Sequence record: SRR22947727_155 | Length of the DNA stretch: 43,028 nt | Reading direction: 5' to 3' (one strand) | Part shown: piece by piece, positions 5,443 to 37,007 of the stretch | Layout of the letters: every line of letters begins with the position of its first letter | Numbering within the stretch: the first letter of the stretch is position 1 | Notes under the pieces: model-generated | What the model was told of the DNA's origin: nothing | Database searches by the model: none | What the model saw: only the letters and a program-made list of their open reading frames with translations | Translations under genes and position numbers: made by a program

Positions 5443-5446
5443 ATGA

Positions 5447-6295: not shown

Positions 6296-6344
6296 TTTAC
6301 TTATTTTAATACAATTAAAGTGATCAGATCAAATCTATAAACAG

Positions 6345-19074: not shown

Positions 19075-19386
19075 CTACTCTATTTCTACTTCTTGAATTA
19101 ATTTCATAATTTGATCATTAACCAATCTAGATCCTTCTAAAGAGAGATGATCATCATCATAATAAAATATATGTTTATTATCATGTGTTATGCATCTTCC
19201 GATAATACTATTACAAAAAATTTTATGTGGATAGACTCTATAAATATTTGCATTATTGATAGAATTTAGTAGCTCAAAACTTGTTTTAGTTTTTTCTTTA
19301 TAAACATTATATAAGGTTATAAATTTCTCCACTTCAAGTTTTTTGGGGTAACCTTCAATTTCTGAGCGGTACCTGATTGCTGACAT
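19075..19386 (-). pseudogene. Internally deleted OafA-like AT3-SGNH O-acyltransferase remnant
   Basis: N-terminus MSAIRYRSEIEG resembles the AT3 start motif YRxEIDG(LR); it runs straight into an SGNH C-terminal tail (FC...RC...FYYDDDHLS, DxxH); no TM segments; only 103 aa. Confidence 0.75.
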
Positions 19387-19445: not shown

Positions 19446-20135
19446 TTAAACTTTATCAACTAAACTTTTGGCAATTTTTAAATCATCTAAAGTATCAATA
19501 TCTACAGATCTCCATTTTTCCATCTCAACAAAACCACACTTTTTACCTATTCTTCCTTTTTTAAATAAAAGATCTTTTTTCATTACATATATCGACTTGT
19601 TTTCAGCCCACTGATTCCATATTTCTTTCTGCCTTGGCATACGATTATTAGGATCATAATTTGTAGGAACTACTTGTTTTTTATTTTTAATTTTCCATAA
19701 ATATCTAGTATCGTGATATAGCGAAAGAACCGAGTCGAAACCTTTATTTTTTACCATATCAATTGCTTTATCCAATGATTTTACATCTCTAAGTGGTGAC
19801 GTGGGATACAATAAAACCACAATGTCTACTTTTTTATTATATTTTTTTTCGTATTTTTGAACTGTCCATTTCAATAATAAGTCTACCTCTTGTAAAATTT
19901 TATCATGAGAGTATTTTTTTGGTCTATTCATTGTCTTTACACCATAACCATTAGCAACTTCCCTTATTTTTTTATCGTCGCTATTTAAAACATAATCATC
20001 AAGATATTTAGATTTCTTTGCAACATTTATTGTGTAATAAATAAGTGGCTTATTATTTAATTTAATTATATTTTTCTTTGGTATACCTTTTGAACCACCT
20101 CTAGCTGGTGAAATTCCAAGAACAAATTTTTTCAT
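19446..20135 (-). CDS. Acylneuraminate (ulosonate) cytidylyltransferase, NeuA-like
   Basis: PARGGSKGIPKKN, KPLI, PTSPLR, PRQ, SVDIDTLDD. Confidence 0.92.
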   Translation of the reverse strand: MKKFVLGISPARGGSKGIPKKNIIKLNNKPLIYYTINVAKKSKYLDDYVLNSDDKKIREVANGYGVKTMNRPKKYSHDKILQEVDLLLKWTVQKYEKKYNKKVDIVVLLYPTSPLRDVKSLDKAIDMVKNKGFDSVLSLYHDTRYLWKIKNKKQVVPTNYDPNNRMPRQKEIWNQWAENKSIYVMKKDLLFKKGRIGKKCGFVEMEKWRSVDIDTLDDLKIAKSLVDKV

Positions 20136-20992
20136 ATTAGATTTGGGTACACTAATTTATAATTTTCTTCCATAAAATTATTTAAAATATCTTCTTCAAT
20201 TTTATTATAGTAAGTATTATTAAAATTGATCGTTGGACTTATAAATTTATTGTATTTATTTAATGAAAAAAAATTAGAAATATCACAATTAACACCACTG
20301 CCATCAAGTCCAATATTTTCAATTACAGAAAATGGTGGATAAACAGAATATTTTTTTTTTATAAAATGGGTTATGATCCAGTCTATACTCCATATGTTTT
20401 TATTAAAATTCTTGTCCATAGTTTTAGACAATAAAATTTTTATATCTTTTGGATAAACTTCATAATGATTTTTTTTTGATTTAATATCTTTTAAGATTTT
20501 GTGGTAATCTAGCCATTCTTCTTTCCAGGTTGCCCATCCCCAAGGGAAAAACCTTTTTAAAATAAATGGGCTATTATTTTTATATATATCACGATAATTA
20601 CCTATTCTATAACCACAAATACTTTTAATATCGTTTTCATCTTTAAAGTAATTAAGACTATTCTTAAAAAAATTAAAACCATTTTTTTTTAAAACACAAT
20701 CATCTTCCAAAACTATTATGGCATCAGCTTTTTTATTAAAAGTATAATCTATAGATTTTACCATATTTGATGCTAAACCAATATTCTTATTTCGTATAAC
20801 AATACTACTTATAATTTCTTTATAAGATTTTAATATTCTTGAAATTTTTTTTTGTTTGAAAATATCTTTTTTATTTTTAGCGCCATCTAAAAAAACCAAT
20901 ATTCCATTTACATTATTTTTTTTTAAACTTTCAAGAACCTTTATTGTATGTCTCGGCCTATTATATAAAAGCAAGATAACTTTAATCTTCAT
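20132..20992 (-). CDS. GT-A fold glycosyltransferase (GT2-like, WGWATW type)
   Basis: YNRPRHT, FLDG, NIGLA, IVLEDD, WGWATW, NIGLDGSG. Confidence 0.88.
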   Translation of the reverse strand: MKIKVILLLYNRPRHTIKVLESLKKNNVNGILVFLDGAKNKKDIFKQKKISRILKSYKEIISSIVIRNKNIGLASNMVKSIDYTFNKKADAIIVLEDDCVLKKNGFNFFKNSLNYFKDENDIKSICGYRIGNYRDIYKNNSPFILKRFFPWGWATWKEEWLDYHKILKDIKSKKNHYEVYPKDIKILLSKTMDKNFNKNIWSIDWIITHFIKKKYSVYPPFSVIENIGLDGSGVNCDISNFFSLNKYNKFISPTINFNNTYYNKIEEDILNNFMEENYKLVYPNLI

Positions 20993-22200
20993 TTAAAACT
21001 TAGAATTAATAATTTGTTCTCATATTGTTTTCTTTTTATTATTTTATCGATCATACTATCGATACCTTTAACTTTTATTGCATTTTTGAGAAATAATTCA
21101 GCAATAAATCTTCCTTTGCTTCTTCTAATTAATTCTATTGTTTCTTTTCTGTTTCTTTGGTTACCCACACCTCTGGACATCATAACAGTTAATCCAGATT
21201 TTTGTATTGTCATTTCATCAAGCAAAATCATATTTGATGCAAATCCAAATGGAATTACAAATGAATTTTCTTTGAGTATTTTGTTATTGGACCAAAGTGG
21301 TGAAGTATTTGAAGATGAGCAGTCCATCAACAATCCTAAATTTTTATTATTAAAAAATTTATTAAGTTTTTTTGATATTTTGTCAATTGTATCACTTATT
21401 AAATCGGCAAAGTCATAACTTGGTATTTTTTTATTCAATTCATTTGATATTTTTTTATTTATAACAAAATAATCAATTTCTGAATTAATAGTTTTTTTTA
21501 GGTTTTCAATTTTTTTTAAATCATTATCAACTAAAAATATTTTATTATCTGGAGATGAATTTGAGAATAAATAGGCAGCTAAACTTCCACTTTGTCCCGC
21601 ACCAAATAAAACCATTCTATTATTTTTATAGAGCTCAGGAATTCTAGTAAGTGCATTTCTTACGTCAGCCAATAAAAAACTATACATAAATGGCATCAAT
21701 TCTTTATTGCTAGGTTTTTCTTTTTTTTTAAAACAAATTTCATAACTGAATTTTGGAAGTATTGTATATTCGGAAAAAGTTCCGTCATAAGAATCTTTTC
21801 CATGTCCAATTATTTTTCCTTGTCCATACTGACACTCTGTATATCGATGTAATACTTTACAAGAATAGCAATCGTAGTTATCGCAGGGATAATGACCGAA
21901 AACTGCAACATAATCACCGATGTCAACGTCATCAACAGACACATGTTTATCTATGATTTTTGAAACACCTCCATTACCAAAGACAAAATGATTTTTATTC
22001 AAAAATTCTTGTATTCTAGGATGTGCTGGTTTTTCAGAAGATGAAAGCCAGAAACTTCCATGAACTGGTACAAATAAATTTTTTACTAAAATTTCTCCAT
22101 TTTTAAGTTTTTTTAACCTTTTTCTTTCCTTTATGGTTATAACTTTTCTTTTTAAATTATTTTCCCACTTACAAACTATTTGATTAGTAATTTTAGGCAT
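20989..22200 (-). CDS. Divergent medium-chain dehydrogenase/reductase (Zn-ADH fold)
   Basis: GEILVK, GDYVAV, structural Zn cluster CDNYDCYSC...EC, DGTFSEY, Rossmann motif FGAGQSG. Confidence 0.82.
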   Translation of the reverse strand: MPKITNQIVCKWENNLKRKVITIKERKRLKKLKNGEILVKNLFVPVHGSFWLSSSEKPAHPRIQEFLNKNHFVFGNGGVSKIIDKHVSVDDVDIGDYVAVFGHYPCDNYDCYSCKVLHRYTECQYGQGKIIGHGKDSYDGTFSEYTILPKFSYEICFKKKEKPSNKELMPFMYSFLLADVRNALTRIPELYKNNRMVLFGAGQSGSLAAYLFSNSSPDNKIFLVDNDLKKIENLKKTINSEIDYFVINKKISNELNKKIPSYDFADLISDTIDKISKKLNKFFNNKNLGLLMDCSSSNTSPLWSNNKILKENSFVIPFGFASNMILLDEMTIQKSGLTVMMSRGVGNQRNRKETIELIRRSKGRFIAELFLKNAIKVKGIDSMIDKIIKRKQYENKLLILSFK

Positions 22201-23221
22201 AAAATTTTTTTGCAGCTTCTAGCTCTTTTAAAAAACTATTAGATAAAGGTATTCCAGTTTTTGATCTTTTTTCAAAAATTTCGTTTTCTTTTTGCCCAGG
22301 ATACTTTGGCTCATCCAGCTTTTTATTTATTTTTTTTGAGTGAGTAATATTTTTTATTGTTTTGTTTATATTTTTTTTAAAATTTTTAAGATTACATATT
22401 TTATTTAAATTTATTACTATAAAACTTTGTGATAAATATCTTTTATTTTTTATATTATCTCCATACATAGATGTTACATCACTTGTCATATTCATATTTG
22501 ATAGAGCGCCAGTTAAAATATCGACAAATAATGATAAGCCTGTTCCTTTAAAATCACCAATTGGCATTAGATATTCAGCTTTTTTAGGATCAGTGGTCAT
22601 TTTGAAAAAACTATTTAAAGCTACATTAGGTGGTAATTTTTTTCCTTTTTTATTTAAATATCTAATTTTATTAAAACTAATTGATGTAATACAACTATCA
22701 TAAGCAAAATTTATTTTTTTATTTATTGGGCAAACTAAACTCAATGGATTGTTTCCATAAAATACTTTCCTAGTATTTTTTAACATTACTCTTGGGGTTG
22801 CTTGTGTCATTCCAATGATTAAATATCCGTCTTTTACACTGTCAAAACCAAAATATGACATCGCACCACAATGGCCTGAGTTATAAATATTTGCCATGGC
22901 AATTCCAGTCTTATTAGATAAATTTATCAAATATTTGACAGCTTTATTGCAAGCATGGTGACCCATTGTATGGTCAGCATCTATACTTACAAAATTATTC
23001 AATATTTTTTTATATTTTATTTTTGGTTTTAAATTAGTTCTACCAGAAATAATTTCTCTTAAATATTGTGGAAAAAGGTTTAAACCATGCGAATCGATTC
23101 CTCTTAATGAAGACCAAACTAAACCATCAATAGTATCTTCTAATATTTTTACGTTTATTTTATGAAATCTTAAAGTCTCAAAAATAATTTTATGTATGTC
23201 GTTTTTTTTAATTAAGATCAT
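22193..23221 (-). CDS. Ldh_2 family 2-hydroxyacid oxidoreductase (AllD/ComC/YiaK-like)
   Basis: LRGIDSHG, DADHTMG, NSGHCGA, GNNPLS, PIGDFKGTGL, YPGQKE, GIPL. Confidence 0.9.
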   Translation of the reverse strand: MILIKKNDIHKIIFETLRFHKINVKILEDTIDGLVWSSLRGIDSHGLNLFPQYLREIISGRTNLKPKIKYKKILNNFVSIDADHTMGHHACNKAVKYLINLSNKTGIAMANIYNSGHCGAMSYFGFDSVKDGYLIIGMTQATPRVMLKNTRKVFYGNNPLSLVCPINKKINFAYDSCITSISFNKIRYLNKKGKKLPPNVALNSFFKMTTDPKKAEYLMPIGDFKGTGLSLFVDILTGALSNMNMTSDVTSMYGDNIKNKRYLSQSFIVINLNKICNLKNFKKNINKTIKNITHSKKINKKLDEPKYPGQKENEIFEKRSKTGIPLSNSFLKELEAAKKFYA

Positions 23222-24302
23222 AAGAATTTTCTAACTTACTTAAAAATTTTTTTTGATCAAGTTTTAATATTTTTGTAAATTTTTTATCACCTTTTACGAG
23301 GTTGGAAGCATTATATAAAAATTTTACAAAATTAAATTGAGAAAGTGGATCGTGTTGAAAGATAATACTTAAAAATTTTGATTTCTGATCTAAATTATGT
23401 TTTTCATAATTTTTAACTCTTTTTGGGTTTACTAAAAAATCATTATCAAAAATTTTAATCCTCTTAGGGTTGCAAACTAAAATTTCAAACAAAATATATG
23501 GTAACATATTTGAGATACCTATCATCATATACCTATCAATATTTATACTTTTATAAACATTATCAAAATTAAATCTTTTAAAAAACTTTACATAACCATC
23601 AGTTTTAAAAATAACAGCTTTGGCTTTTTTTATAAATTCTAAATTTTTTAGTTTAATAATTTCTTCAGTTTTTGTTCCATTTAAATATATTATATCTATT
23701 TTTTTACCCTTAGATATATTTGATAAATTTGATTGATCAATTTGATTAATTCTAACAACAATATCATATTTATCTATTTCTGCTGCGTTTTTATCTTTGC
23801 TCAAAGCTGGACCAACAATTGCTACATTTTTATTGAAAAAGAAATTTTTTAGACACTCGTCAACAGAAGTTTTTTCTTTAATACTATAATAAAGTTTATT
23901 TTGAAGTTCTAGATTGTTATTTTCAGTAATATTTGAATAGTCTATTTTTTTATTTTTATTTAATTTTAAATAAAATTTTCTTAGAAAAAAACTATCAACA
24001 AGCCAGCCCTTAAAGATGAAAAACTTATAATAAAACAAGATTTTTTTATCATCTTTTATGCTTAATTTTTTAAGTAGTTTGTCAATTGAATTATTTTTTT
24101 TATTAATCTTGTCAAATATAAATTCGTTGATTTTTACATCATAAATTTTATTGAATTTTGTCAAATTTTTTTTTAATTCTTTTTTGCTTTTTGCAAAACA
24201 TATAAAATTATTTAAATCCTTACATTCTTTTTCAAATTGTCTTGTGTTTTTATTGGTAAGTTTTCTAAATATAGATTTAATATATTGTTTTAAATGATAC
24301 AT
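23208..24302 (-). CDS. GT29-like (sialyltransferase sialylmotif-L) protein
   Basis: KNVAIVGPALSKDKNAAEIDKYDIVVRIN...GKKIDIIYLN resembles sialylmotif L (CAVVGN...G.EID..D.V.R.N...G.KT); late QHD. Confidence 0.65.
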   Translation of the reverse strand: MYHLKQYIKSIFRKLTNKNTRQFEKECKDLNNFICFAKSKKELKKNLTKFNKIYDVKINEFIFDKINKKNNSIDKLLKKLSIKDDKKILFYYKFFIFKGWLVDSFFLRKFYLKLNKNKKIDYSNITENNNLELQNKLYYSIKEKTSVDECLKNFFFNKNVAIVGPALSKDKNAAEIDKYDIVVRINQIDQSNLSNISKGKKIDIIYLNGTKTEEIIKLKNLEFIKKAKAVIFKTDGYVKFFKRFNFDNVYKSINIDRYMMIGISNMLPYILFEILVCNPKRIKIFDNDFLVNPKRVKNYEKHNLDQKSKFLSIIFQHDPLSQFNFVKFLYNASNLVKGDKKFTKILKLDQKKFLSKLENSYDLN

Positions 24303-24384
24303 TTTATAAAAAATTTTAATATTATTGAAATAAAAATATAATAAAAAAACTTAACCTACAATATTAATTGAATAATCAATTTAA

Positions 24385-25587
24385 CTATTTTAATAAATTC
24401 TCTAATTCATCTTGATCATTCTGAAATTTATTTTTCCAATTATTTAAACCAGAATTCACAGATTTTAAATGATAATCTATATTGTTTTGATCTATTTTCT
24501 TCCCAAGTGGCTTCTTAAAATGAAATTTTTTTTGATCATGATTATGAATTAAACTAATAATTATATCTCCAAATTCTGCTTTAAAATGAGAATCCCACCA
24601 CCATGTCATCTCTTTGTCTTTGTCATTTAAGCTAGGGACTTGTTCCATTGTAATATCATTTAAAAGTGCAAAATCCCAAATATCAAATTTGTTTTTTTTG
24701 TATTTTTTTGAGACTTTATCATTACTAGATATCAATCCCTTCTTCCAATGTTCATATTTTTGCCAATTATTTGATATTGAAATTGTGCTTAAATGTCTTG
24801 CATGCATTGGTTGTATAACAATCGTTAAATCTATATCACTTTCATAACTTTTGCTTAATAGTTTTTCAAATATATTCCATGAATTTATATTTTTGTTAAA
24901 AAAAGAGTAATCTTTATAAAATTTATTTATTAAATTTTTTTCTTTTTTTAAAAAAATTTTTTTGTGTCCTCCTTCCAACAATATTCTATCTTTCATATGA
25001 TTTCTTTCTCTCATACCGTTTTTTAAGTATTTGTAATGAATAGAATTTTGTAATTTTATAGTTTCATAACTACCCTTTAAAGCATGCCAAGATGATAATA
25101 GAGCAAGCTTGTTGCCAGCAGTATGTTGTTGATTACCATTAAAACTAATAGATAGCATGCGTTCATCAAAATCAACTTTATTTGGTAAATTAGCATTGAA
25201 CATATAAAAATCTAAAAACAATAATACTTTTTTTTGTTTTCTAATATTTTGAGCATGTTGAAAATATCTGTAAACTTCATACAGATTTGGACCTGGTAAA
25301 CCTAGGTTATAAATATTTCTCTTATCTAGATATTTATGTTCAGGATCAAAACCAAATTCTGCTTTTGAACTACCTAAGATTATAGCATCTGGTTTTTGAT
25401 CTTTTATTGCAAAAGCTTTGGTCATTCTTATATTTTTTTCAAAAGCAGGTTTTTCTTTATTAAAATTATTTATTCTAGGTTGTTCATAAAATCCGAAAGG
25501 ATCGATTAATCTATTAATAGCGATAACTAATGTCATCAAAAATAAAAATAGTGTGATAATTATAAAAAAGTATTTCTTGTTTATCAT
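24385..25587 (-). CDS. Membrane-anchored SGNH-like acyltransferase (DltD/AlgJ-like)
   Basis: N-terminal TM followed by IDPFG; block I IILGSS; YNLGLPG; C-terminal WDSH (DxH); directly downstream of the MBOAT. Confidence 0.65.
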   Translation of the reverse strand: MINKKYFFIIITLFLFLMTLVIAINRLIDPFGFYEQPRINNFNKEKPAFEKNIRMTKAFAIKDQKPDAIILGSSKAEFGFDPEHKYLDKRNIYNLGLPGPNLYEVYRYFQHAQNIRKQKKVLLFLDFYMFNANLPNKVDFDERMLSISFNGNQQHTAGNKLALLSSWHALKGSYETIKLQNSIHYKYLKNGMRERNHMKDRILLEGGHKKIFLKKEKNLINKFYKDYSFFNKNINSWNIFEKLLSKSYESDIDLTIVIQPMHARHLSTISISNNWQKYEHWKKGLISSNDKVSKKYKKNKFDIWDFALLNDITMEQVPSLNDKDKEMTWWWDSHFKAEFGDIIISLIHNHDQKKFHFKKPLGKKIDQNNIDYHLKSVNSGLNNWKNKFQNDQDELENLLK

Positions 25588-25591
25588 TTTT

Positions 25592-27184
25592 TTAAAACTG
25601 GAAATAAATAAATTCAGATATATTGCTCAGATTCATTACTGAAAAAGTAAATAAGATACAAATTAAAATAGACCAAAAAATATTTGGTTTCCAAGAAACT
25701 TTGAAGAATTCAAATTTTTTCTCATTATCATCCTCAAGAGATGGAAAGTATTCATGAAATAAACTTTTTGTATTTGGTGCTAATATGCAAAAAAGATATA
25801 AAAAAAAAATAATTAATAACTGATTGAAGCCAAAAAAAAATGGTAAAGTGTCATATTTGATAAAACTATTGTTTGTAAAATTTGGTCCAAATATAGATTG
25901 AAGTAAAATAAACCAACTATCAGGGACAACAATATTGCTGATGTTAAACATGGCATTGTAGATTATTATCGCAGAATCATAGTTGGTGGCTCTAAAAAAG
26001 ACAATAGAAATTGCGTAAGCTAAAAAAACAATAAAACAACTTAAAAAATAACTACTTAAAGAATATTTTTTATATAAATTTTTAATAAAATTACCTTGCA
26101 ATCTTTTCCATATGATATTTACAATTATATAAAATGCATGAATGGCACCAAAAAATAAAAAATTTACACCAGAACCATGCCAAATGCCTATCAAAAGATA
26201 AGTAATTAAAGAAGGAATTATTATTGTAAGGGTAAAATTCGTAACAAAATCTCTTTTTTTTCTTAATGAAAATCTTGTAAAAAATAAGGACAAAGGATAA
26301 TAAACATAATCCCTAAAAAAAATACCAAGTGTTATGTGCCATCTGCGCCAGAACTCTGCAATATTTCTTGATTTAAAAGGGGAGTCAAAATTAAGTGGAA
26401 GCTTAATACCAAACATATACCCCAATCCTATTGCCATATCTGAATAACCAGAAAAATCGAAATATATTTGAAGACTGTAGCATAAAACGCCCGACCAAGC
26501 TTCCAGAAAAGATATACTCATTGATTGTTCAGCCGCAAAAAAAACTGGACTTGAATAAAAGGATAAATTATCAGCAATAATTACTTTTTTAAATAACCCA
26601 ATTACAAAGATTGAGAATCCAATAAGCAAGTATTGTGTTTTTTTCTCTATGAAGTTGATATTTCTAAACTGATAAAGAACTTGAGAATGATGAACAATAG
26701 GTCCTGCAATTAATTGAGGGAAGAAAGTTATAAAGATAACAAAATCTTTTAAACTTAAATTGTCAATTTTTTTATTATAAAGATCAACAAGAAAAGTTAT
26801 TTGTTGAAAAGTATAGAATGATATTCCTAAAGGTAAAATTATATTTTTTGATATTAGTTCAAGATTTGATGAAAAAGAAATTATATCAACAAAGAAATTA
26901 TAATATTTAAAATATCCTAATAAAAATAGATTTAATAAAATTCCAAAAATTAAAAAAATTTTTTTTTGGAAAGAACGGATTAATATAGCAAAAAAATAAT
27001 TAGAAGTTAGAGAAAATAATATTAAAATGAGATAAATTGGTGTCCACCAACTATAAAAAAACAATGAGCAAACTATAAGCCAAAAAATAGCAAATTTATT
27101 ATTAGAAAATTTGTGTATTAAGTAATAACCTAACCAAGTAATTGGTAAAAATAAAAGTATAAATTGATAAGAATTAAATAACAT
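25592..27184 (-). CDS. MBOAT family O-acyltransferase (AlgI/DltB/PatA-like) with C-terminal FIYFQF motif
   Basis: MLFNS, LPLGISFYTFQ, FFPQLIAGPI, QIYFDFSGYSDMAIG, EFWRRWHITL, GIWHG (catalytic His), ends SEFIYFQF. Confidence 0.96.
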   Translation of the reverse strand: MLFNSYQFILLFLPITWLGYYLIHKFSNNKFAIFWLIVCSLFFYSWWTPIYLILILFSLTSNYFFAILIRSFQKKIFLIFGILLNLFLLGYFKYYNFFVDIISFSSNLELISKNIILPLGISFYTFQQITFLVDLYNKKIDNLSLKDFVIFITFFPQLIAGPIVHHSQVLYQFRNINFIEKKTQYLLIGFSIFVIGLFKKVIIADNLSFYSSPVFFAAEQSMSISFLEAWSGVLCYSLQIYFDFSGYSDMAIGLGYMFGIKLPLNFDSPFKSRNIAEFWRRWHITLGIFFRDYVYYPLSLFFTRFSLRKKRDFVTNFTLTIIIPSLITYLLIGIWHGSGVNFLFFGAIHAFYIIVNIIWKRLQGNFIKNLYKKYSLSSYFLSCFIVFLAYAISIVFFRATNYDSAIIIYNAMFNISNIVVPDSWFILLQSIFGPNFTNNSFIKYDTLPFFFGFNQLLIIFFLYLFCILAPNTKSLFHEYFPSLEDDNEKKFEFFKVSWKPNIFWSILICILFTFSVMNLSNISEFIYFQF

Positions 27185-27190
27185 CTTAAA

Positions 27191-29080
27191 TTATTTTGAA
27201 GATATAACTAGATCAAAATTTAATTTTGTGTTTAGATCTAAAGTCCACTCACTATTTGATTCTTTATCTTCATTTTGCATTATGAACCCTAGCTTTTTAT
27301 AATGATCTTTCACAATTCCATTCTTCTTAGTACTTAAATAAGTACCTTTTAATTTTTTTATTTTTTTTGAAATTGCAATCTCAGCAATGTGATTAAGACA
27401 AAATTCTTCAACTTTTCTACCTAACACTCTACAACTCATTATCCAGGTGTCAATTTCCCAAATATCTTTTACTTTTTTACAAATAATCAAGCTAATCAAG
27501 CCATTATCTCCAAAAATATCCTCCAACCTTATTTGAAATGTGAAATAATCGTCATTATTAATAATGTTCTTTATATCGTTCATTTTGTATCTTCTAGTGG
27601 TCAGATTGAACTGATTTGAACGTAAGATTAGTTGAGCAATTCTATTCAAATCTTTTTCTTGAAATTCTTTTAACTCGGCTTTCATTTTTAGTGTTTTTAA
27701 ATAACTTCCAATATCTTTACTGATACTTAATAAATTTGAACGTTTAATATTTGCATTGTAACTATCCACTCTTTTAGTGTCTTCCTCAGAAAAAACTATA
27801 GATTCAAAATAACCACCTGCTAATAAAGTTCTTACATATGTGGATGGGTCATCTGTTAGTTCTGGAACAGCAACTTCTGGTAAGTGTTGTCTAACAATAT
27901 CTCTTTCCATTGGATTATCATCAAGAAAAACAAATGAGTCTAATGATAGGTTTAAAGAATGCGAAATCTCAGTAATATTACTTGGTTTATCTTTCCAGTT
28001 TGCTTTGAATACAGTTATGTGCTCTTCTTTGAGTATCATGCTTTTATGCTTTAAGAAAACCTCTTTTGCTATTTTTTCCTCATTTTTTGAGCATACTGCA
28101 ATTACAACACCCCTTTCTCGCAATTTCAAAATCATTTTTTGTATATCTAAAAATATTTCTCCCAACTTGTCATTTGCCCCTAATTTTATTCCATCTAAGC
28201 CATCATCTCCAATAACACCTCCCCAGAGTGTATTATCTAGGTCAACAACTAAAACTTTTTTTGTCTTACCTGAAATTGCCGCTATAATTCTAGACAAATT
28301 CTCAGCATAAAAAGGCACATAGTCTAATGAAAAAGGAAATTTAGCATGATAATACATTGTTTGATCATGCCAACTATCAGTTCCCACAATCTCTGAAAGT
28401 GCAGATATGTCAAAGATGTAATCACTTGAGTTTTTTACATTTGTAAAAAGCTTCATATTAAATTCATTTACAAAACTTCTGTCTGTACCATTTATATTAC
28501 TCTCTATATTTCCAAAATATTGTTCAGGATTTTGAGGAAGAGTCTGAAAAATACATGGAACATTATATTTGTTATTTAATTTTTCTTTGATTTTTTTTAG
28601 ATAATCAATCGAATCATTTGCATGATTATTTTCATCTATAAAATTATTATTAAGCCTTAATAAAGAAAATCCCTCAATATCTATTGCAAGAAGAATTAGG
28701 TCTAATTTTTTTTTCTTGAAAGGATCTATGTCACTTAATGCGATTTGTGTTAATTGGTTGTAAGGAGCCTCATGAATATCTATCATTAATCCATAACGAA
28801 GACCAGCTATAACTATGTCAGGTATCAGATGAGACGATGTATGATTTGATATAATCCCTAATGAAATTTTTTTTAAACTATTAAAATCTTTTTCAAAAAA
28901 TTTAATTTTTTTTAATCTATTATAAATTTTATTAGTATTTGAAATATTTGGTCTATGTTTTGCAAATTTCAATAACTCTTCAATTTTAACATCTTTAGAA
29001 AAAATTTTTTTGATTTCATCATCAAAACTAGATGAAAACTTTGGATACCATTCAAGATTCTGAAATAGATTAGAACTCAT
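27191..29080 (-). CDS. FkbH-like HAD-IIIC glyceryl transferase/phosphatase with C-terminal GNAT-like domain
   Basis: KVLVVDLDNTLWGGVIGDDG, CSKN, ANWKDK, FLDDNPMER, RSNQFNLTTRRY, MSCRVLGR. Confidence 0.95.
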   Translation of the reverse strand: MSSNLFQNLEWYPKFSSSFDDEIKKIFSKDVKIEELLKFAKHRPNISNTNKIYNRLKKIKFFEKDFNSLKKISLGIISNHTSSHLIPDIVIAGLRYGLMIDIHEAPYNQLTQIALSDIDPFKKKKLDLILLAIDIEGFSLLRLNNNFIDENNHANDSIDYLKKIKEKLNNKYNVPCIFQTLPQNPEQYFGNIESNINGTDRSFVNEFNMKLFTNVKNSSDYIFDISALSEIVGTDSWHDQTMYYHAKFPFSLDYVPFYAENLSRIIAAISGKTKKVLVVDLDNTLWGGVIGDDGLDGIKLGANDKLGEIFLDIQKMILKLRERGVVIAVCSKNEEKIAKEVFLKHKSMILKEEHITVFKANWKDKPSNITEISHSLNLSLDSFVFLDDNPMERDIVRQHLPEVAVPELTDDPSTYVRTLLAGGYFESIVFSEEDTKRVDSYNANIKRSNLLSISKDIGSYLKTLKMKAELKEFQEKDLNRIAQLILRSNQFNLTTRRYKMNDIKNIINNDDYFTFQIRLEDIFGDNGLISLIICKKVKDIWEIDTWIMSCRVLGRKVEEFCLNHIAEIAISKKIKKLKGTYLSTKKNGIVKDHYKKLGFIMQNEDKESNSEWTLDLNTKLNFDLVISSK

Positions 29081-29214
29081 AGAGATATTATTTTTAATTA
29101 TTTTATTATAAATTGTAAATGACTAATTTTATTTAATTGAATTACTCAATCTTAATATTTTTTAAGACTCCTTTTAATTTTTTTTTTGATAATAAAAAAA
29201 TTGCATAAATTTTT

Positions 29215-29652
29215 TTATATTTTTAAAGTAGTTACTATAGTATTTGCTTTTCCTCTAGCCTTTAAGATGTTATCTTTCACTGAAAATATTTTTATAATTA
29301 ATTCGACAGATGATGTTGACTCTGAAATATGAGTAACTTCAGAGACAATTTTAGCTTCTTCATTAACATATAGTGGTTTTAAAAATGACAAATTTAAATT
29401 GGTACATAGCGAATGACCACCAGGTAGTTTCATTCCAAGCATTTTTGAAGTTTTTGCAAAAAGTAACCCACCATATACAATTATATCTTTGTAGCCTCGT
29501 GAAATTGCAAAAGAACTATCAACGTGTAAAGGGCTTGAGTCTCCAGAAATTTTTTCAAAATCTAACATCATCTGTTTGGTAATTTTAAAATAGAAATTGT
29601 CAGTGGAGCCAATCTTAATATCCTTGATTGATAAAATTTTTGGAATATCCAT
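29215..29652 (-). CDS. MaoC/PhaJ-like hotdog-fold (de)hydratase
   Basis: FEKISGDSSPLHVD (D-x4-H hydratase dyad), IVYGGL, GMKLPG, FLKPLY. Confidence 0.92.
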   Translation of the reverse strand: MDIPKILSIKDIKIGSTDNFYFKITKQMMLDFEKISGDSSPLHVDSSFAISRGYKDIIVYGGLLFAKTSKMLGMKLPGGHSLCTNLNLSFLKPLYVNEEAKIVSEVTHISESTSSVELIIKIFSVKDNILKARGKANTIVTTLKI

Positions 29653-29692
29653 AATTAAATTTTTGTACTCTAAGCTTTCAAAATAAAATAAA

Positions 29693-29938
29693 TTAGTTTT
29701 TAATTTTCTTAAGAATTAGATTATGAAATTCTTTTACATTATTTAACGAATTAATCTCATTTGCAGAAAATTTGATTCCAAAATCTTTTTCATGGGACGC
29801 AACAAGGCGAATATGAGAAAGACTATCCCATTGTTCTATATCATCAGCTGTTGTCTCTGGGCTGATGGTAATATCATTATCATCAAAAACATCTCTAAAA
29901 ATCAAATTAGATTTTTTTAAAATATCTTTTAAATCCAT
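29693..29938 (-). CDS. Acyl carrier protein
   Basis: 81 aa, acidic, WDSLSHI phosphopantetheine site, EKDFGIKF. Confidence 0.95.
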   Translation of the reverse strand: MDLKDILKKSNLIFRDVFDDNDITISPETTADDIEQWDSLSHIRLVASHEKDFGIKFSANEINSLNNVKEFHNLILKKIKN

Positions 29939-30032
29939 TAAAGTAATGCCTCGCTATAAATAAATTTTAAGTTTCTGTTTCTTAAACATATCAAACTTAT
30001 ATAAAAAAAAAAAAATTACCACTTAAATCATA

Positions 30033-31802
30033 TTAAGATTTAGCACTTTCTTTTACTAATTGATTAAAAGTTTTAAGATTTAGTTCTCCATTTTTTAATA
30101 AATAAATATTATCACAGTTTTTTACTGTACTCAATCTATGGGCAATTAAGATGATTGTCATATTTTGACTTAGATTATTAACTGCATCCATTACGGCTTG
30201 TTCAGTTTGATTATCTAGTGCGCTAGTTGCTTCATCTAATATCAAAACCTTTGGATTATGATATAAGGCCCTCGCAATTCCTATACGTTGTTTTTGACCT
30301 CCAGATAATCGTACGCCTCTCTCACCTATAATGGTTTGATATTTTTGTTCCAATTCATTTTCAACAAAATTATGTAAATTTGCAATCTCGGCTGCTCTTT
30401 TAACTGCTTTAAAGTCAATATTATCTTTATCAATTCCAAATGCAATGTTTGAAGCGATAGTTTCATCTATTAAATAAATATTTTGGGGTACATACCCAAT
30501 TATATTTTTCCAGCTTTGTAAATTTTTCTCAGTTATCACTATTCCATCCACTTTTAAAGTACCTTTATTGAATTTTAGTAAACCCAGAATAATATCCACA
30601 ATAGTGGTTTTACCACTACCAGTTGATCCAACCAATCCAACGATGTCATTGGCATTTATAGTTAAATTAATATTTTTTAATATTAATCTTTGAGAATTAG
30701 GATAGCTAAATTGAATATTATTTAAAGAAATTTGTTTATTAAATAATATAGTATCTTCATTAATATTAGGTTTAATTTCATTAAGATTTTTTAAATCATT
30801 TACTAAAGCACTTAGAGAAGGATTTATAAAAGTAATTTGAGTTAAAGAATTATAAATTTGTTGTAAAGATGGTATTAAACGATATCCAGCGAAAATATAA
30901 AAAGCAATCACTGGCAAAGCTTCATTAAAATTACCTTTTTTTAGCATTAAATATAATATCAATAGCATTGCTCCTCCAAAAGCTATTGCCTCTAAAAAAA
31001 AACGTGGCAAATGTTTTATAATTTGAGATAACGCAGTAGTACTTGCATAAATTTTTGAAGGAACGGCAAAACTATTTATATAAATTTTTTCCATACCTCT
31101 AATTTTAATCTCTTTAATTGCACCGAAAGCTTCACTAAGAGTTAAAAATCTTGACTTGTTATTTTCTAATCTTAATTTTCCTATTTTTTTAAGAAAGCTA
31201 CGTAAAATATAAAAAATTATTGAATATGCTCCACCCAGTATAAATCCTACAATGATTGCAAGTTTAATATCAACCACAAGTAATAACACAATGATCGCAA
31301 TTGCGACTGTTCCTTTAGCTAGTAATTCAATCAAAGGATTTAACCCATTTCCAATTATAGCTTGAATTTCGGACAACACATTTTTTCCTAAATCTGCACT
31401 ATGGCGATTTAAAAACCAGGCATATGGCTGTCTAAGATAACTTTCTAATAATCGTTTACCTATAGTATATTCGCGCATCTGCACAAACCTATGTTGAGCG
31501 TATGTTGTGATTGCTTTAAAAGAAAGCGATATAATCAACATAACAAACACCATAATGCCCAAGAAAAACAGAAATTCCTGTTCATCTTCAACTCCAAATT
31601 TGATTGAAAAGTTAAATATAGAATTCAAAATTGAATTAGACTCGATTAAAGTTGGATTGGTTAAAACTGCGATAAATGGTAATATCGAAACAACGCCTAT
31701 AATTTCCAGTAAAGCCATAATCAGAATCATTACTGCTAATAAAATTACTCGTTTAATTTCTTGAAAAGTAAATAAAAATAAAAAATTTTTAATAATTTGC
31801 AT
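30033..31802 (-). CDS. ABC transporter permease/ATP-binding fusion (MsbA/PglK-like glycolipid flippase)
   Basis: N-terminal TMD; Walker A GSTGSGKT; YVPQ; LSGGQKQR; Walker B ILDEATSALD; IAHRLST. Confidence 0.93.
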   Translation of the reverse strand: MQIIKNFLFLFTFQEIKRVILLAVMILIMALLEIIGVVSILPFIAVLTNPTLIESNSILNSIFNFSIKFGVEDEQEFLFFLGIMVFVMLIISLSFKAITTYAQHRFVQMREYTIGKRLLESYLRQPYAWFLNRHSADLGKNVLSEIQAIIGNGLNPLIELLAKGTVAIAIIVLLLVVDIKLAIIVGFILGGAYSIIFYILRSFLKKIGKLRLENNKSRFLTLSEAFGAIKEIKIRGMEKIYINSFAVPSKIYASTTALSQIIKHLPRFFLEAIAFGGAMLLILYLMLKKGNFNEALPVIAFYIFAGYRLIPSLQQIYNSLTQITFINPSLSALVNDLKNLNEIKPNINEDTILFNKQISLNNIQFSYPNSQRLILKNINLTINANDIVGLVGSTGSGKTTIVDIILGLLKFNKGTLKVDGIVITEKNLQSWKNIIGYVPQNIYLIDETIASNIAFGIDKDNIDFKAVKRAAEIANLHNFVENELEQKYQTIIGERGVRLSGGQKQRIGIARALYHNPKVLILDEATSALDNQTEQAVMDAVNNLSQNMTIILIAHRLSTVKNCDNIYLLKNGELNLKTFNQLVKESAKS

Positions 31803-31918: not shown

Positions 31919-33688
31919 ATGAAATATCATCTTATTACTTCTAATGCAAAAATTAGTAATAAAAATAGGATTTTTTTAGGAGACTGGTGTGGAGAGGTAA
32001 AAAATAAAAACAAAAATAACAAATCTAATATTGTAAAAGTTAACTTAGGTAGAGATGAAAACGAGAGGAAAAAAATAGAAAAAAAAATCTTGATATATGA
32101 AAAAAAAATATTTCCTCAACTTTATAAATTATTAAATAATCTCCATAATACTCATAATAGTAAACAATATTATTCATTCATAATTGGTAAGTGGTTAAGA
32201 AGATATCTTGCAGTAATGCTAAACAGATATTTAACTCTTAGTGAATATTTAAGATGTAATAAAAATAAAATTCAAGACATTTGGTTTGAAACATATAATG
32301 TGCTTTCGCCACCTTTAGATAGTTTTTCAGCTATAGAGTTTTTTGATGACCCAAAAATAAATGATTGGATATATATTCAGACTTTAAAATCAGTAAATTC
32401 TAATTTTAAAATTAAAATTAAACACATAAGACAAATTAAATCAAAAAGAAAATATAATATTGGTAAAAAGAATGTCTTTAAAATAATTTTAAATAAAGTG
32501 AACACAATTATCCAAAAATATTTTTCATATTCAGATAAAACATTTTTTATTGGGACATTTATGCCACTTTATAAAGAAGCAATATTAAATTTATATTTTT
32601 TTCAATTACCTAAAATATGGAAAAAAAATAAAATAAATTATTCTGAGAAAGCTGATTTGGACTTAAGAATAAAGCTCAAAAACTTATTGGTATCAAATTT
32701 TTTGAAACAAAAGGATAAAAATAAAAACGGAGAGTTTAAATTTTTAATTGAAAATTTATTCCACATGATGCCTACCTCCTATATTGAAAATTTTTTGAAT
32801 ATAAAAGACTCTATTTCAAAAAGTTATTGGCCAGAAAAGCCAAATTTAATTTTCACCTCAAATAATTTTGATACAGACGAAGGATTTAAAATTTACCTGG
32901 CTGAACAAAAAGAGAATAATCCGAATTTAAAATACATTATTGGTCAGCATGGTATAGGATACAATATTAGAAACACAAAAACGCATTACCAAGAAAGAGA
33001 AATTGCAGATAAGATTTTTGTATGGGGTAAATACACAGAAAATAAAAATCAAATACCTGGTTTTATATTAAAATCATCAAAGATTGATTATGATAAAAAT
33101 GGAAAAATTTTAATAGTTTGTACACACCTTGGTCACCAGGTTGAATATTGGGATAAAAATTATTTTTTTTCTAAAAATTTCAATAGAAAAATTACCTTTC
33201 TTGCAGCATTCAAGAAAAAATTTTTATACGAAAATATGATAATAAGATTGGGAATAAATTTTGAAAGATATCATTTTAATGAAAAAATAAAAACTAAAAA
33301 AAAATTTCCAAAAATATATATCGATGAAAATAAGAACATAAATAAATCGTATGCTGTTTCAAGACTGGTAGTTCATTTTTATTTTGCAACAACTTTCTTA
33401 GAAACAATTTCAAAAAATATACCTTCAGTAATGCTACTAGATATTGAAGAGTTTAGTTATAATAAAAAAGCAATTTCTATTTTTAAAATTTTAGAAAAGA
33501 ATAGCATTTTATTTTACGATGCAAAAAAAATGCAAGAATTTGTTGAAAAAAATTATAATAATTTAGAAAAGTGGTGGTATTCAAAAAAAACTCAAAAAGC
33601 CCTAAATTTATTTAGAAGTAATTACTGTAGAAATGGTTCATTAAGAAAATTTAGGGATATGATAAAAAAAACTAATTATATTTCTTAG
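31919..33688 (+). CDS. LIC12162-family putative surface carbohydrate transferase
   Basis: FLGDWC near the N-terminus, LNNLHN, IGKWL, MPTSYIE, GQHG, TTFLET, EKWW; motifs recalled from this family. Confidence 0.75.
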   Translation: MKYHLITSNAKISNKNRIFLGDWCGEVKNKNKNNKSNIVKVNLGRDENERKKIEKKILIYEKKIFPQLYKLLNNLHNTHNSKQYYSFIIGKWLRRYLAVMLNRYLTLSEYLRCNKNKIQDIWFETYNVLSPPLDSFSAIEFFDDPKINDWIYIQTLKSVNSNFKIKIKHIRQIKSKRKYNIGKKNVFKIILNKVNTIIQKYFSYSDKTFFIGTFMPLYKEAILNLYFFQLPKIWKKNKINYSEKADLDLRIKLKNLLVSNFLKQKDKNKNGEFKFLIENLFHMMPTSYIENFLNIKDSISKSYWPEKPNLIFTSNNFDTDEGFKIYLAEQKENNPNLKYIIGQHGIGYNIRNTKTHYQEREIADKIFVWGKYTENKNQIPGFILKSSKIDYDKNGKILIVCTHLGHQVEYWDKNYFFSKNFNRKITFLAAFKKKFLYENMIIRLGINFERYHFNEKIKTKKKFPKIYIDENKNINKSYAVSRLVVHFYFATTFLETISKNIPSVMLLDIEEFSYNKKAISIFKILEKNSILFYDAKKMQEFVEKNYNNLEKWWYSKKTQKALNLFRSNYCRNGSLRKFRDMIKKTNYIS

Positions 33689-33755: not shown

Positions 33756-34802
33756 ATGTTAAAAAAAATTTCAAAATATAAAAAATATATTGACGGAAAA
33801 ACATTCTTTGTTACTGGAGGGACTGGTTCGTTTGGTAAAAAATTTATCTATACTTTACTTAAAGAGTACAACCCTAAGAAAATCATTATTTTTAGTCGAG
33901 ATGAATTAAAACAATATAATTTACAAAATGATCCTTTTTTCAAAAAGTACGAAAAAAAACTAAGATATTTTATTGGAGATATAAGAGATAGAGAACGTTT
34001 AGATTTTGCTCTATCAAATAACTATGTAGATATTCTTGTGCACTCTGCTGCATTAAAACAAGTGGTTGCTGCTGAATATAATCCATTTGAAACAATAAAA
34101 ACAAATATAATTGGAGCACAAAACATTATTGAGAGCTCGCTAAAATATAAAGTTAAAAAAGTACTAGCTTTAAGTACTGACAAAGCCGCAGCACCTATTA
34201 ATCTATATGGAGCAACAAAGCTAGCATCTGATAAAATATTTGTTTCGAGTAACAATTTTAGCAAAAAAAACTCATTGTTTTCTGTTGTGAGATATGGAAA
34301 TGTTTTTGGAAGTAGAGGTTCAGTAATATTCAATTTTTTAAAAAATAAGAATTTAATTCCGATAACTGATAAAAGAATGACAAGATTTTCTATCACACTT
34401 CAACAAGGTGTTAACTTTGTTATCAAATCTTTATCTGAAATGTGGGGTGGTGAAATATTTATTCCAAAGATTCCATCTTATAATATCTTGGATTTAGCAA
34501 AAGCAGTAAATCCAAAAGCAAAACTAATATTCTCAGGTATTCGTTCAGGAGAAAAAATTCATGAAGAAATGTTGACAAAATCAGATTCATATAACTCAAT
34601 TGAAAATGATGATCACTATGTGATTTTACCATCTTTTGATTATTTGAGTTGGGATAAGAAGAGTTATATAAAAAAGAAGAAACTGAACTACAGAGAATGT
34701 AAACTACACAGTTATAGTAGTGATAATAATAAGGATTTTATGAAAATTAATGATCTAAAAAAATTGGTAAAAAAAATTAAAATAGATGAAAAACTTGGGT
34801 GA
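33756..34802 (+). CDS. pseB: UDP-N-acetylglucosamine 4,6-dehydratase (inverting)
   Basis: TGGTGSFG, FSRDELKQ, HSAALKQV, AEYNPFE, LSTDKA, NLYGATK, VRYGNVFGSRGSV, GEKIHE. Confidence 0.95.
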   Translation: MLKKISKYKKYIDGKTFFVTGGTGSFGKKFIYTLLKEYNPKKIIIFSRDELKQYNLQNDPFFKKYEKKLRYFIGDIRDRERLDFALSNNYVDILVHSAALKQVVAAEYNPFETIKTNIIGAQNIIESSLKYKVKKVLALSTDKAAAPINLYGATKLASDKIFVSSNNFSKKNSLFSVVRYGNVFGSRGSVIFNFLKNKNLIPITDKRMTRFSITLQQGVNFVIKSLSEMWGGEIFIPKIPSYNILDLAKAVNPKAKLIFSGIRSGEKIHEEMLTKSDSYNSIENDDHYVILPSFDYLSWDKKSYIKKKKLNYRECKLHSYSSDNNKDFMKINDLKKLVKKIKIDEKLG

Positions 34803-36051
34803 TCCCTATAAACTTGCCAAAATTTTATTTCCAATTAATAGAAGCTTGACAGGTAAAGGAAACTATAAAACTTTAAAAATATTAAAAAAAATAAATAATT
34901 TAATAAAAATAAAATCATTTAAGGTTGGAGAAAAAGTTTTCGATTGGAAAATACCTCCTGTTTGGAACACATCATATGCATATTTAAAAAAAATTAATGG
35001 AGAAGTGATTTGTGATTTTAAAAAAAATAATCTTCATCTTTTAGGTTATAGTATTTCAATAGACAAAAAATTTAAATTTAAAGAGTTATCTAAAAACTTA
35101 TTTTTTATAAAAAAATATCCACAAGCAATTCCATATGTGACAAGCTATTACAAAAAAAATTGGGGTTTTTGCTTAAGTTATAATCAATATAAAAAAATGG
35201 ATAGAAAATCAAAATATCATGCAGTTATAAAAACAGATTTTAATTACAAAGGTAACATGAATTACGGTGAAGCTTTAATTAAAGGAAAAGACAAAAGAGA
35301 AATTGTTCTCTCTAGTTATATATGTCACCCATCTATGGCCAATAATGAGACCTCTGGAATAGTTGTTCTGAGCTTTTTACTGAAATGGTTAAATTCTTTT
35401 AAAAAATTGAAATATAGCTATAGATTTTTGTTCATACCAGAAACTATTGGTTCTATAGCATATGTAAACAAACATTATAAAAAATTAAAAAAGAATATTT
35501 TAACAGGTATTGTAATAACATGTGTCGGCGACAATGGACCATTTTCTTTATTAAAATCTAAATATAACAATGCACCTGGAGACAAAATTATTGAAAGACA
35601 TTTGAGAAAAAAAAAAATTCATTCAAAGATTTATAATTGGTCAGACCGTGGAAGTGACGAAAGACAATTCTGCTCTCCTAATGTCGATCTTCCGTTTTCA
35701 AGCTTTATGCGATCCAAATATGGCGAATACAAACAGTATCATACTTCAGAAGACAATATGAATTTTATCTCAAAAAAAGGACTTCAAGATAGTATTCTGT
35801 TTCTTCAAAAAATTATTTTAAATTTAGAAAATTCTAATTTTTGGAGATCTAGATTTATGTGTGAGCCAATGTTATCAAAAAGAAAATTATATCCTACGAT
35901 AAGCAAAGCTTCTAACAACAATAATGACTTATTGGATATACTTACATGGTGTGATGGAAAAAATTCAGAGGAAGACATATCTGAAATTACAAAAATAAAA
36001 GGATTGAAATCTAAAATCGCTGTTTTAAAAAAAAACAAACTTATTTACTAA
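34786..36051 (+). CDS. DUF4910 aminopeptidase-like polysaccharide biosynthesis protein
   Basis: FPINRSLTG, FDWKIP, IPYVTSYY, WGFC, CHPSMANNE, PETIGSI, GSDERQF, YHTS, EPMLSKRKLY. Confidence 0.9.
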   Translation: MKNLGDPYKLAKILFPINRSLTGKGNYKTLKILKKINNLIKIKSFKVGEKVFDWKIPPVWNTSYAYLKKINGEVICDFKKNNLHLLGYSISIDKKFKFKELSKNLFFIKKYPQAIPYVTSYYKKNWGFCLSYNQYKKMDRKSKYHAVIKTDFNYKGNMNYGEALIKGKDKREIVLSSYICHPSMANNETSGIVVLSFLLKWLNSFKKLKYSYRFLFIPETIGSIAYVNKHYKKLKKNILTGIVITCVGDNGPFSLLKSKYNNAPGDKIIERHLRKKKIHSKIYNWSDRGSDERQFCSPNVDLPFSSFMRSKYGEYKQYHTSEDNMNFISKKGLQDSILFLQKIILNLENSNFWRSRFMCEPMLSKRKLYPTISKASNNNNDLLDILTWCDGKNSEEDISEITKIKGLKSKIAVLKKNKLIY

Positions 36052-37007
36052 CTAAATCTGTCATAAAAAAAATATTTATGATTAACTAATTTGTAAAACT
36101 CTACAACACTGTTGTGCCTTGATACTTCTTTGAAGGTAAGTTCATAATTGTATTTTTTCATAAATTTTTTAAAATAATGTTCCAAGACTGCAGCTTCATC
36201 TTCATCAATCCTTTTAGACCACTTACCAATATTTATTTTTGAAATTTTTTTCAATTTTAATTGATTAAAATTATTTCCATAAGTTTCTGATCCCATCAAG
36301 GTTGGAACGATTAAGTCATTCGAATAACTAATTTTTAAAAATTTACATATTTTTTTCATTTCTTTTTTTGGTGAAGCTATTAAATCTTCAAAACGGCATA
36401 CGTAGTAGTCTTTTCCAATGATTTTTTTATTAATTTCAATTGCTTCTAAGCCATTTAAGTATCTAAATATGATTGAAAATAATATAGACAGCTTGTCATC
36501 GTTAAATTTACTATAATATTTCTTTAAGCCCGATTTAATGGCAGAGTAATTATCTCTAGGATCTCTAATCAGATGAATAAATTTAGCATTTTTGAACCAT
36601 TTCTTTATTTCAGTTGCATAAATTTCTACACTTGTTTCTTTACATATAATTGATTTGGTTTCTTTAGTTGTAAATTTCTGATTATAGATATTTAACAAAT
36701 TATAAATTAAATTTTTGGTATCATAGTTTTTTTTTATTTTGTCAAAAAAAATCTTTTGATATTTTTCTAAGTTAATTCTTTTTTTTATTATTTCATTTTT
36801 TGCAAATTCTTTGAATAAAATATTTTCTAATCTTTTTTTTTTTTTTGACTTATTTAACTTTCTTTCAACAATTGGAAAATAAGCGTATAGTAAATTTAAA
36901 TCAGTCGGAAACACATTTATTTCTGAATTATTGTCAAATAAATTAAGAAACATTGATGTGCCTGATTTTCTATGACCACATAAAAAAATTGGATTAAAAT
37001 CTTTCAT
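36048..37007 (-). CDS. PAPS-dependent sulfotransferase family protein
   Basis: 5'-PSB loop GHRKSGTS; 3'-PB IRDPRDNYSA; RFEDL; IGKW. Confidence 0.88.
   Translation of the reverse strand: MKDFNPIFLCGHRKSGTSMFLNLFDNNSEINVFPTDLNLLYAYFPIVERKLNKSKKKKRLENILFKEFAKNEIIKKRINLEKYQKIFFDKIKKNYDTKNLIYNLLNIYNQKFTTKETKSIICKETSVEIYATEIKKWFKNAKFIHLIRDPRDNYSAIKSGLKKYYSKFNDDKLSILFSIIFRYLNGLEAIEINKKIIGKDYYVCRFEDLIASPKKEMKKICKFLKISYSNDLIVPTLMGSETYGNNFNQLKLKKISKINIGKWSKRIDEDEAAVLEHYFKKFMKKYNYELTFKEVSRHNSVVEFYKLVNHKYFFYDRFS

Follow-up and report, generated by a model that had tools for sequence, protein, structure and literature searches.

What is a free-standing MaoC-type dehydratase doing between an acyl carrier protein (ACP) and an FkbH-like loader? 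The question is posed by positions 27191-29938 of a 43,028-nucleotide stretch from sequence record SRR22947727_155; the whole of this stretch is referred to here as the window. The original prediction for this locus described a MaoC gene lying between ACP and FkbH genes with no ketoreductase beside it, and this description was borne out, with three open reading frames (ORFs) in that order on the minus strand and no cassette-type short-chain dehydrogenase/reductase (SDR) found in the window. Our best explanation, which we hold to be probable, is that the three genes are the cytoplasmic part of a Dlt-like acylation cassette of five genes, made up of the carrier, MaoC, the FkbH loader, a membrane-bound O-acyltransferase (MBOAT) and a DltD-like SGNH protein, which would place a three-carbon acid onto a surface glycan.

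In the pathway that we propose, FkbH would take a three-carbon unit from 1,3-bisphosphoglycerate to give glyceryl-S-ACP, and MaoC would remove water from this β-hydroxy thioester to give the enol of pyruvoyl-ACP and hence pyruvoyl-ACP. Interconversion of 3-hydroxyacyl and 2-enoyl thioesters is the reaction of MaoC/hydratase-2 enzymes, and glyceryl-ACP falls into the first of these two classes. In relatives of the window a dedicated SDR would then reduce pyruvoyl-ACP to lactyl-ACP, so that lactyl is the expected cargo where the SDR is present. The MBOAT and the DltD-like protein would finally move the acyl group across the inner membrane to a hydroxyl of a surface glycan. We infer each of these chemical steps, and the acceptor, from the nature and the linkage of the genes, and the main evidence for the middle part of the scheme is the tight linkage of MaoC with an SDR across related loci.

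Composition of the Cassette

The carrier protein (29693-29938, minus strand, as are all five genes) has 81 residues and a WDSLSH phosphopantetheine-serine motif. It matches the NCBIfam ACP models with E values of 1.7e-4 to 1.8e-3, under their cut-offs, and its orthologue in a related metagenome locus (L083) reaches PF00550 with 20.9 bits against a cut-off of 20.8. The MaoC dehydratase (29215-29652) is a single hotdog of 145 residues that scores 37.8 bits against PF01575 (cut-off 27). The hydratase-2 motif is commonly written G-D-x-N-P-x-H; the window protein has SGDSSPLH, with both the Asp (Asp38) and the His (His43) in place, and G37, D38 and H43 are invariant across 20 cassette MaoCs. The nearest solved structure is an (R)-specific enoyl-CoA hydratase (1iq6, E 2.2e-12), with which the motif, including the Asp and the His, is aligned. 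One position of the motif is unusual within the cassette group, as Ser40 stands where 18 of 19 cassette relatives have Asn. Serine is nevertheless frequent at this position in the family at large, where 31 of 143 motifs from the best 150 MaoC relatives have it, and Ser40 is therefore no sign of decay, a possibility that we had considered and rejected.

MaoC is separated from the loader by an AT-rich spacer of 134 bases (29081-29214) that holds no reading frame and lies at the site of the SDR gene in relatives. The FkbH-like loader itself (27191-29080) has 629 residues, comprising an N-terminal domain, a HAD-IIIC phosphatase core and a C-terminal part. It scores 302.8 bits against TIGR01686 over residues 273-602 (cut-off 146.65), with 68.5 bits for TIGR01681 and 38.4 bits for PF21211 (FkbH_N), and residues 61-432 match PDB entry 3slr with an E value of 4.9e-63. 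Typical of the FkbH family are the HAD motif DxDxT and a conserved cysteine to which the glyceryl group is attached. In the window loader the motif reads DLDNT (280-284), and none of D280, D282, T284 and C550 varies among 18 diverse homologues.

The cassette extends past the trio reported in the original prediction. The MBOAT gene (25592-27184; 530 residues; PF03062, 59.5 bits) starts 6 bases past the FkbH stop, and its product scores 171 bits against TIGR04091 (DltB), below the equivalog cut-off of 375, so that we call it DltB-like rather than DltB. Its nearest solved relatives are the DltB entries 8jem and 6bug (E 2-3e-28), with the WHG histidine aligned. The last gene (hyp400; 24385-25587) begins 4 bases after the MBOAT gene and encodes a 400-residue protein with an N-terminal helix, GSS at 72-74, D332 and H334, which has no match to any Pfam or NCBIfam family. 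G72, S74, D332 and H334 are invariant in 7 homologues, and the AlphaFold model (pLDDT 84.6, pTM 0.85) places the helix at 2-28. In a Foldseek search with this model the seven best matches were all DltD chains, at E values of about 1e-3, with no match at E ≤ 0.001. In VIA-align the comparisons with DltD gave the longest alignments (244-258 residues), with Z scores of 11.7-12.2 that tie with those of shorter SGNH esterases; among named Atlas clusters, DUF1574 and DltD come nearest (0.89-0.90). The ranking of the matches, the VIA-align Z scores and the catalytic residues thus point along several lines to a membrane-anchored, DltD-like SGNH protein. We also considered whether hyp364, a gene further along the strand, might be a second DltD-like gene; it has no similarity to hyp400 (E 0.13), which rules this out. 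With an MBOAT and a DltD-like protein as the last two members of the cassette, its likely target is an extracytoplasmic O-ester rather than an N-acyl group on a nonulosonate.

Linkage of MaoC to a Reductase in Related Loci

The FkbH family is very large, its 630-residue form being very frequent (of 8000 candidates scored, 7982 had E values of at most 1e-10), and spans many phyla. With it we fetched 80 genome loci, which were searched by tblastn; profiles were run over 83 loci, the additional three coming from a scan of metagenomes with close FkbH homologues. A metagenome scan with the MaoC alignment found no relative, and in a sample of 400 genomes from one alphaproteobacterial class the best identities were 39% for MaoC and 58% for PseB.

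A homologue of the carrier protein, mostly adjoining FkbH, is present in 73 of the 80 genome loci, and an MBOAT in 62. MaoC is rarer, at 11 of 80 by tblastn and 17 of 83 by profiles, as is the DltD-like protein (5 of 80 and 9 of 83, respectively). Where MaoC does occur it almost always has an SDR partner: 16 of the 17 loci with a MaoC domain have one, as a separate gene in 12 and as a MaoC::SDR fusion in four. Ten of the 12 separate SDR genes lie directly between MaoC and FkbH. Counted over the genome loci with a stand-alone MaoC, nine of 11 have an SDR of 226-256 residues in that position, and in these cassette SDRs the nucleotide-binding motif is Gly-rich (G-G-I/V-G). Nine genome loci, from four phyla, have the order carrier-MaoC-SDR-FkbH, and this recurrence, together with the presence of the carrier in most loci, makes the arrangement more than chance. 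A Nitrospinaceae locus (L001) has the gene order of the window plus the SDR, namely ACP-MaoC-SDR-FkbH-MBOAT-DltD-like, and the metagenome loci L081 and L083 have ACP-MaoC-SDR; the SDR gene of L083 (7828-8511) begins 7 bases after MaoC and overlaps FkbH by 4 bases. In one locus (L066) the SDR lies further down the operon, and in another (L003) an SDR adjoins FkbH on a contig that ends before a MaoC could be seen.

The fusion proteins, of ∼500 residues (14501-16036 in locus L005, 11788-13365 in L047, 7012-8550 in L078 and 11785-13272 in L080), have MaoC at the N terminus and the SDR at the C terminus, and two of the four genes lie directly after FkbH. Fusions of this kind also account for 8 of the 12 longer proteins examined from among the best 150 cassette-MaoC relatives in a set of 1.84 billion representatives. 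The ∼150 residues between the two domains match nothing; this stretch might be a second, degenerate hotdog.

The linkage of MaoC with the SDR, including the fusions, argues that the two enzymes act successively on the unit loaded by FkbH, and it makes the parallel with the dehydratase (DH)-ketoreductase (KR)-FkbH-ACP lactyl module of polyketide synthases (PKSs) a reasonable one. As judged from gene content and order, a free-standing equivalent of that module appears to exist as a family.

Loss of the Reductase Gene in the Window Lineage

A tblastn search of the window with nine cassette SDRs gave nothing better than an E value of 0.002, and its weak matches lie in other genes, of the epimerase type, where these encode an N-terminal nucleotide-binding region. 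A profile built from the cassette SDRs had no match in the window at E 1e-20. The spacer between MaoC and FkbH was considered as a remnant of the gene and ruled out, having no SDR match. An independent 35,767-base contig from another sequencing run (X2), which carries the relatives P0004 and P0009, spans 27800-30100 and bridges the junction without an insertion. It differs from the window at 73 of 2301 positions (∼3%), with indels of only 1-5 bases, and as it shows the same junction the SDR-less arrangement is no assembly artifact. Reads of three further runs (X1, X3 and X5) gave short pieces only; these do not reach across the junction, nor do they speak against it. Both copies of MaoC have an intact frame and differ at one residue of 145, and the window protein retains Asp38 and His43. 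The SDR-less form is thus genuine; at least two genotypes, slightly diverged from each other, have it, and it is a derived state.

The tree of 20 cassette MaoCs gives the direction of the change. The window protein groups with P0005-P0008 as sister to L083 (support 100/100), and the group of window and L083 is nested in one with L001 and L081 (support 92/87). L083, L001 and L081 all possess an SDR, so that the window MaoC is nested among SDR-linked MaoCs, and relatives with 63-70% MaoC identity retain the gene. Cluster look-ups for Candidatus Pelagibacter sp. HIMB1695 returned MaoC (WP_440694024), SDR (WP_440694025) and FkbH (WP_440694026), all on a 235,935-base contig, and this cultured isolate appears to hold the complete cassette. 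For other close relatives the MaoC, SDR and FkbH clusters contain contigs of equal size (16408, 46113 and 57152), as do the SDR and FkbH clusters (44825 and 31252). On this phylogenetic pattern the window lineage has lost an SDR gene that its nearest relatives keep, a recent loss rather than a design feature. The claim that the locus is a stand-alone analogue of the lactyl module therefore stands in part: MaoC is tied to FkbH and the carrier, and relatives have all four parts, but the window itself no longer has the SDR.

A Gemmatimonadetes locus (L024, 8096-11869) also has a disrupted arrangement, in which the carrier is followed by a short MaoC-like gene of 119 residues that the profile missed, a 338-residue ORF without a family match and, in front of FkbH, 69 residues left over from the C terminus of the cassette SDR; no MBOAT was found there by tblastn. 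We regard this as a second case of SDR disruption, a comparable event, here with an inserted gene.

Comparison with Known Systems

Loading modules of trans-acyltransferase PKSs (BryA of bryostatin; FR901464/spliceostatin) reportedly build a lactyl starter with DH-KR-FkbH-ACP. The relatives of the window share with such modules an FkbH-type loader, a hotdog dehydratase, a short-chain reductase and an ACP gathered around one carrier, and the predicted sequence of glyceryl, pyruvoyl and lactyl intermediates is the same. They differ in that the parts of the cassette are free-standing genes (or MaoC::SDR fusions) rather than synthase domains, that a MaoC/hydratase-2 hotdog takes the place of the PKS-type DH, and that the product would go to an MBOAT rather than into chain extension; no ketosynthase was found by Pfam among the 41 ORFs of the window, which in addition is without the reductase. 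An entry in a pathway-rule table has an FkbH loading module turn 1,3-bpg and ACP into D-lactate-ACP (PMC7901079).

The membrane half of the cassette is closer to the Dlt pathway for D-alanylation of teichoic acids (DltA, DltC, DltB, DltD and DltX). In both, a small carrier feeds a DltB-like MBOAT that is partnered by a membrane-anchored DltD-like SGNH protein. The cassette does not have the adenylating DltA, in whose place there is an FkbH/HAD-IIIC loader, and by Pfam no adenylate-forming enzyme is present in the window; its cargo is predicted to be a three-carbon acid derived from glycolysis, and its host is a Gram-negative alphaproteobacterium. The MaoC in turn resembles PhaJ of Aeromonas caviae (1iq6), likewise a single hotdog of ∼140 residues with a hydratase-2 motif whose Asp and His are aligned. 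However, PhaJ acts on C4-C6 enoyl-CoA for polyester synthesis, whereas the cassette MaoC has Ser for Asn, and its predicted substrate is a carrier-bound 2,3-dihydroxypropanoyl group, with dehydration as the predicted direction.

A different use of an FkbH-type gene is known from Campylobacter jejuni, in which cj1302 is reportedly linked to a glyceroyl-type decoration on the amino group of the sugar, unlike an extracytoplasmic O-ester. This FkbH-domain gene lies in the flagellin glycosylation locus (PMC7099621), a nonulosonic acid glycan locus like that of the window, and the passages of that paper on cj1302 mention no MBOAT or DltD partner.

Alternative Explanations and the End Product

Several observations weigh against the cassette reading and in particular against its middle step. 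By profile, 66 of the 83 loci have no MaoC domain, so that MaoC must be optional in the cassette, and one locus (L059) has MaoC adjoining FkbH with no SDR, and no MBOAT in view; the window would be a second exception to the pairing of MaoC with an SDR. The adjacency of MaoC, SDR and FkbH in HIMB1695 is read from consecutive accessions and equal contig size. At the pocket positions of MaoC that align with the C4-C6 hydratase 1iq6 there is no visible narrowing, and hence nothing in the sequence indicates a three-carbon substrate; the only pointer to glyceryl-ACP as the putative substrate is gene linkage. Since polyketide modules use a PKS-type DH and not a MaoC, the parallel with them is one of analogy. 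Finally, a pyruvoyl thioester or ester is chemically labile, and we know of no glycan that carries a pyruvoyl ester.

How, then, might the pathway end in a strain with MaoC and no SDR? The original prediction put forward two dehydrogenases of the window, Ldh_2 and MDR, as candidate reductases. Ldh_2 (22193-23221, minus strand; PF02615, 255 bits) belongs to a family of NAD(P)H-dependent 2-oxoacid reductases and lies on the same strand ∼4 kb downstream of the cassette trio, and the intactness of both diverged MaoC copies suggests that the dehydration step is still in use. That lactyl-ACP is still made, with Ldh_2, MDR or another island or housekeeping reductase replacing the lost SDR, nevertheless seems to us improbable. 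Homologues of Ldh_2 and MDR, as of hyp364 and hyp286, were found by tblastn in none of the 80 genome loci, and L083, the only related locus with Ldh_2, keeps its dedicated SDR as well, with Ldh_2 one methyltransferase gene away from a cytidylyltransferase. Among enzymes of solved structure, those related to Ldh_2 are the dehydrogenases of malate, ureidoglycolate and sulfolactate, whose substrates are free acids and not thioesters. Both genes, moreover, belong to a separate block of five (19446-24302, minus strand), set off from the cassette by an 82-base gap, in which hyp364, Ldh_2, MDR, hyp286 and a PseF-like cytidylyltransferase overlap successively by 14, 8, 4 and 4 bases. MDR (20989-22200; 403 residues) has a weak ADH_N match, hyp286 a weak rhamnosyltransferase-like match, and the cytidylyltransferase scores below its cut-off. 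The product of hyp364 resembles family-29 sialyltransferases (Atlas score 0.90, a lead only). This resemblance and the overlapping cytidylyltransferase make the block more likely a pathway for a cytidine monophosphate (CMP)-activated acidic sugar together with its transfer, and it looks like a separate pathway for an unusual sugar of this kind. Ldh_2 and MDR are therefore poor candidates for the missing reductase.

The dehydration branch might instead be idle or decaying after the loss of the SDR, with plain glyceryl being transferred and MaoC an undecayed relic. The loader, carrier and MBOAT evidently work without MaoC in the majority of loci counted above, where the form lacking MaoC and SDR presumably transfers glyceryl; the loss is recent, given the close relatives that keep the SDR, and comparable decay is seen in L024. 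A relic, however, would not be expected to keep an intact frame with Asp38 and His43 in place and a copy at ∼3% divergence with a single changed residue, and Ser40 is a common natural variant; an active MaoC would be expected to drain glyceryl-ACP irreversibly through keto-enol tautomerization. We consider this explanation, too, to have a low probability. Least credible is the suggestion, offered as an alternative in the original prediction, that MaoC is unrelated to the FkbH product and supplies an (R)-3-hydroxyacyl group, such as 3-hydroxybutyryl, for N-acylation of a nonulosonic acid. The group does occur on nonulosonates, the nearest solved relatives of MaoC are PhaJ-type (R)-specific enoyl-CoA hydratases, and the island encodes PseB, NeuB, two cytidylyltransferases and aminotransferases. 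The same 41 ORFs, however, yielded by Pfam no thiolase, acyl-CoA ligase or acetoacetyl reductase, just as they yielded no ketosynthase. The MaoC clade, furthermore, sits in FkbH cassettes in the fixed order carrier/MaoC/SDR-FkbH, fused to the SDR in four loci, and the cassette ends in an MBOAT, a maker of O-esters outside the cytoplasm. These points leave very little room for the 3-hydroxybutyryl alternative.

Returning to the proposed acylation cassette, we rate pyruvoyl highest as its end product in the window strain, though at well below an even chance. A lactyl group made through an unlinked reductase is rated only slightly lower, glyceryl transferred with MaoC bypassed is unlikely, and a product other than these three is more unlikely still.

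The Surrounding Island

The window (G+C ∼25%) is one long surface-glycan island. Pfam and NCBIfam matches among its ORFs include glycosyltransferases, a Wzy-like polymerase, PseB, NeuB, aminotransferases, two cytidylyltransferases, a carbamoyltransferase and a sulfotransferase. Among named organisms, it is HIMB1695 that has the closest relatives of the window proteins, from which we take the host to be SAR11-like, that is, a marine bacterium of the SAR11/Pelagibacter type and a Gram-negative alphaproteobacterium. A promoter and terminator scan across 24200-30200 gave little information in such AT-rich DNA, with 54 promoter-like sites where 44.7 ± 5.9 would be expected and not one terminator.

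Directly upstream of the carrier-protein gene, at 30033-31802, lies a PglK/MsbA-like ABC exporter. L083 likewise has one directly upstream of its carrier protein (5322-7076; 30% identity to that of the window), and the exporter may be the flippase of the glycan being acylated. PseB is flanked by a LIC12162-family transferase (31919-33688; TIGR04331, 234.6 bits) and, at 34786-36051, by an aminopeptidase-like protein of the DUF4910/DUF2172 type that has a winged-helix tail; both belong to functionally uncharacterized families that turn up repeatedly in glycan loci. The region 1737-5442, at one end of the island, has a radical SAM/SPASM protein, a 289-residue ORF without a family and the carbamoyltransferase, and the sulfotransferase lies at 36048-37007. 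Taken together, these genes suggest that the same glycan bears additional uncommon groups, such as carbamoyl and sulfate. A 103-residue ORF on the minus strand (19075-19386) matches only the last 68 positions of PF19040, an SGNH domain found fused to AT3 acyltransferases, and is probably the remnant of a truncated O-acyltransferase gene.

Implications

We found no published description of FkbH-loaded, MBOAT-coupled glycan acylation in a literature search that had subscription journals and supplementary files outside its reach. What that search gave on FkbH with an MBOAT included aeruginosin-type gene clusters, and on FkbH with lactyl or on HAD-IIIC it gave nothing related. What the window adds is a SAR11 instance, a cultured relative whose cassette seems to be complete, and a documented case of reductase loss. 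As the missing reductase is a lineage-specific loss, proximity alone is insufficient to recruit a neighboring dehydrogenase into the pathway, and the apparently complete HIMB1695 and the SDR-less window make a natural pair with which to test what each step contributes.

If our reading holds, the cassette would join D-alanylation as a second way in which bacteria modify envelope polymers from a carrier protein, one whose cargo comes straight from glycolysis and in which the chemistry of a polyketide starter module is re-used as loose genes. A more speculative extension, which we rate as rather unlikely, is that gene loss in this hypervariable island switches the surface ester of SAR11, the full cassette giving lactyl, the form without MaoC and SDR glyceryl, and the SDR-less form pyruvoyl. 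Were this so, the SDR-less form would make a 2-oxoacyl (pyruvoyl) ester, which no organism is known to place on a glycan, and switches of a single gene would offer the most abundant bacteria of the ocean a cheap source of surface variation against phages and grazers.

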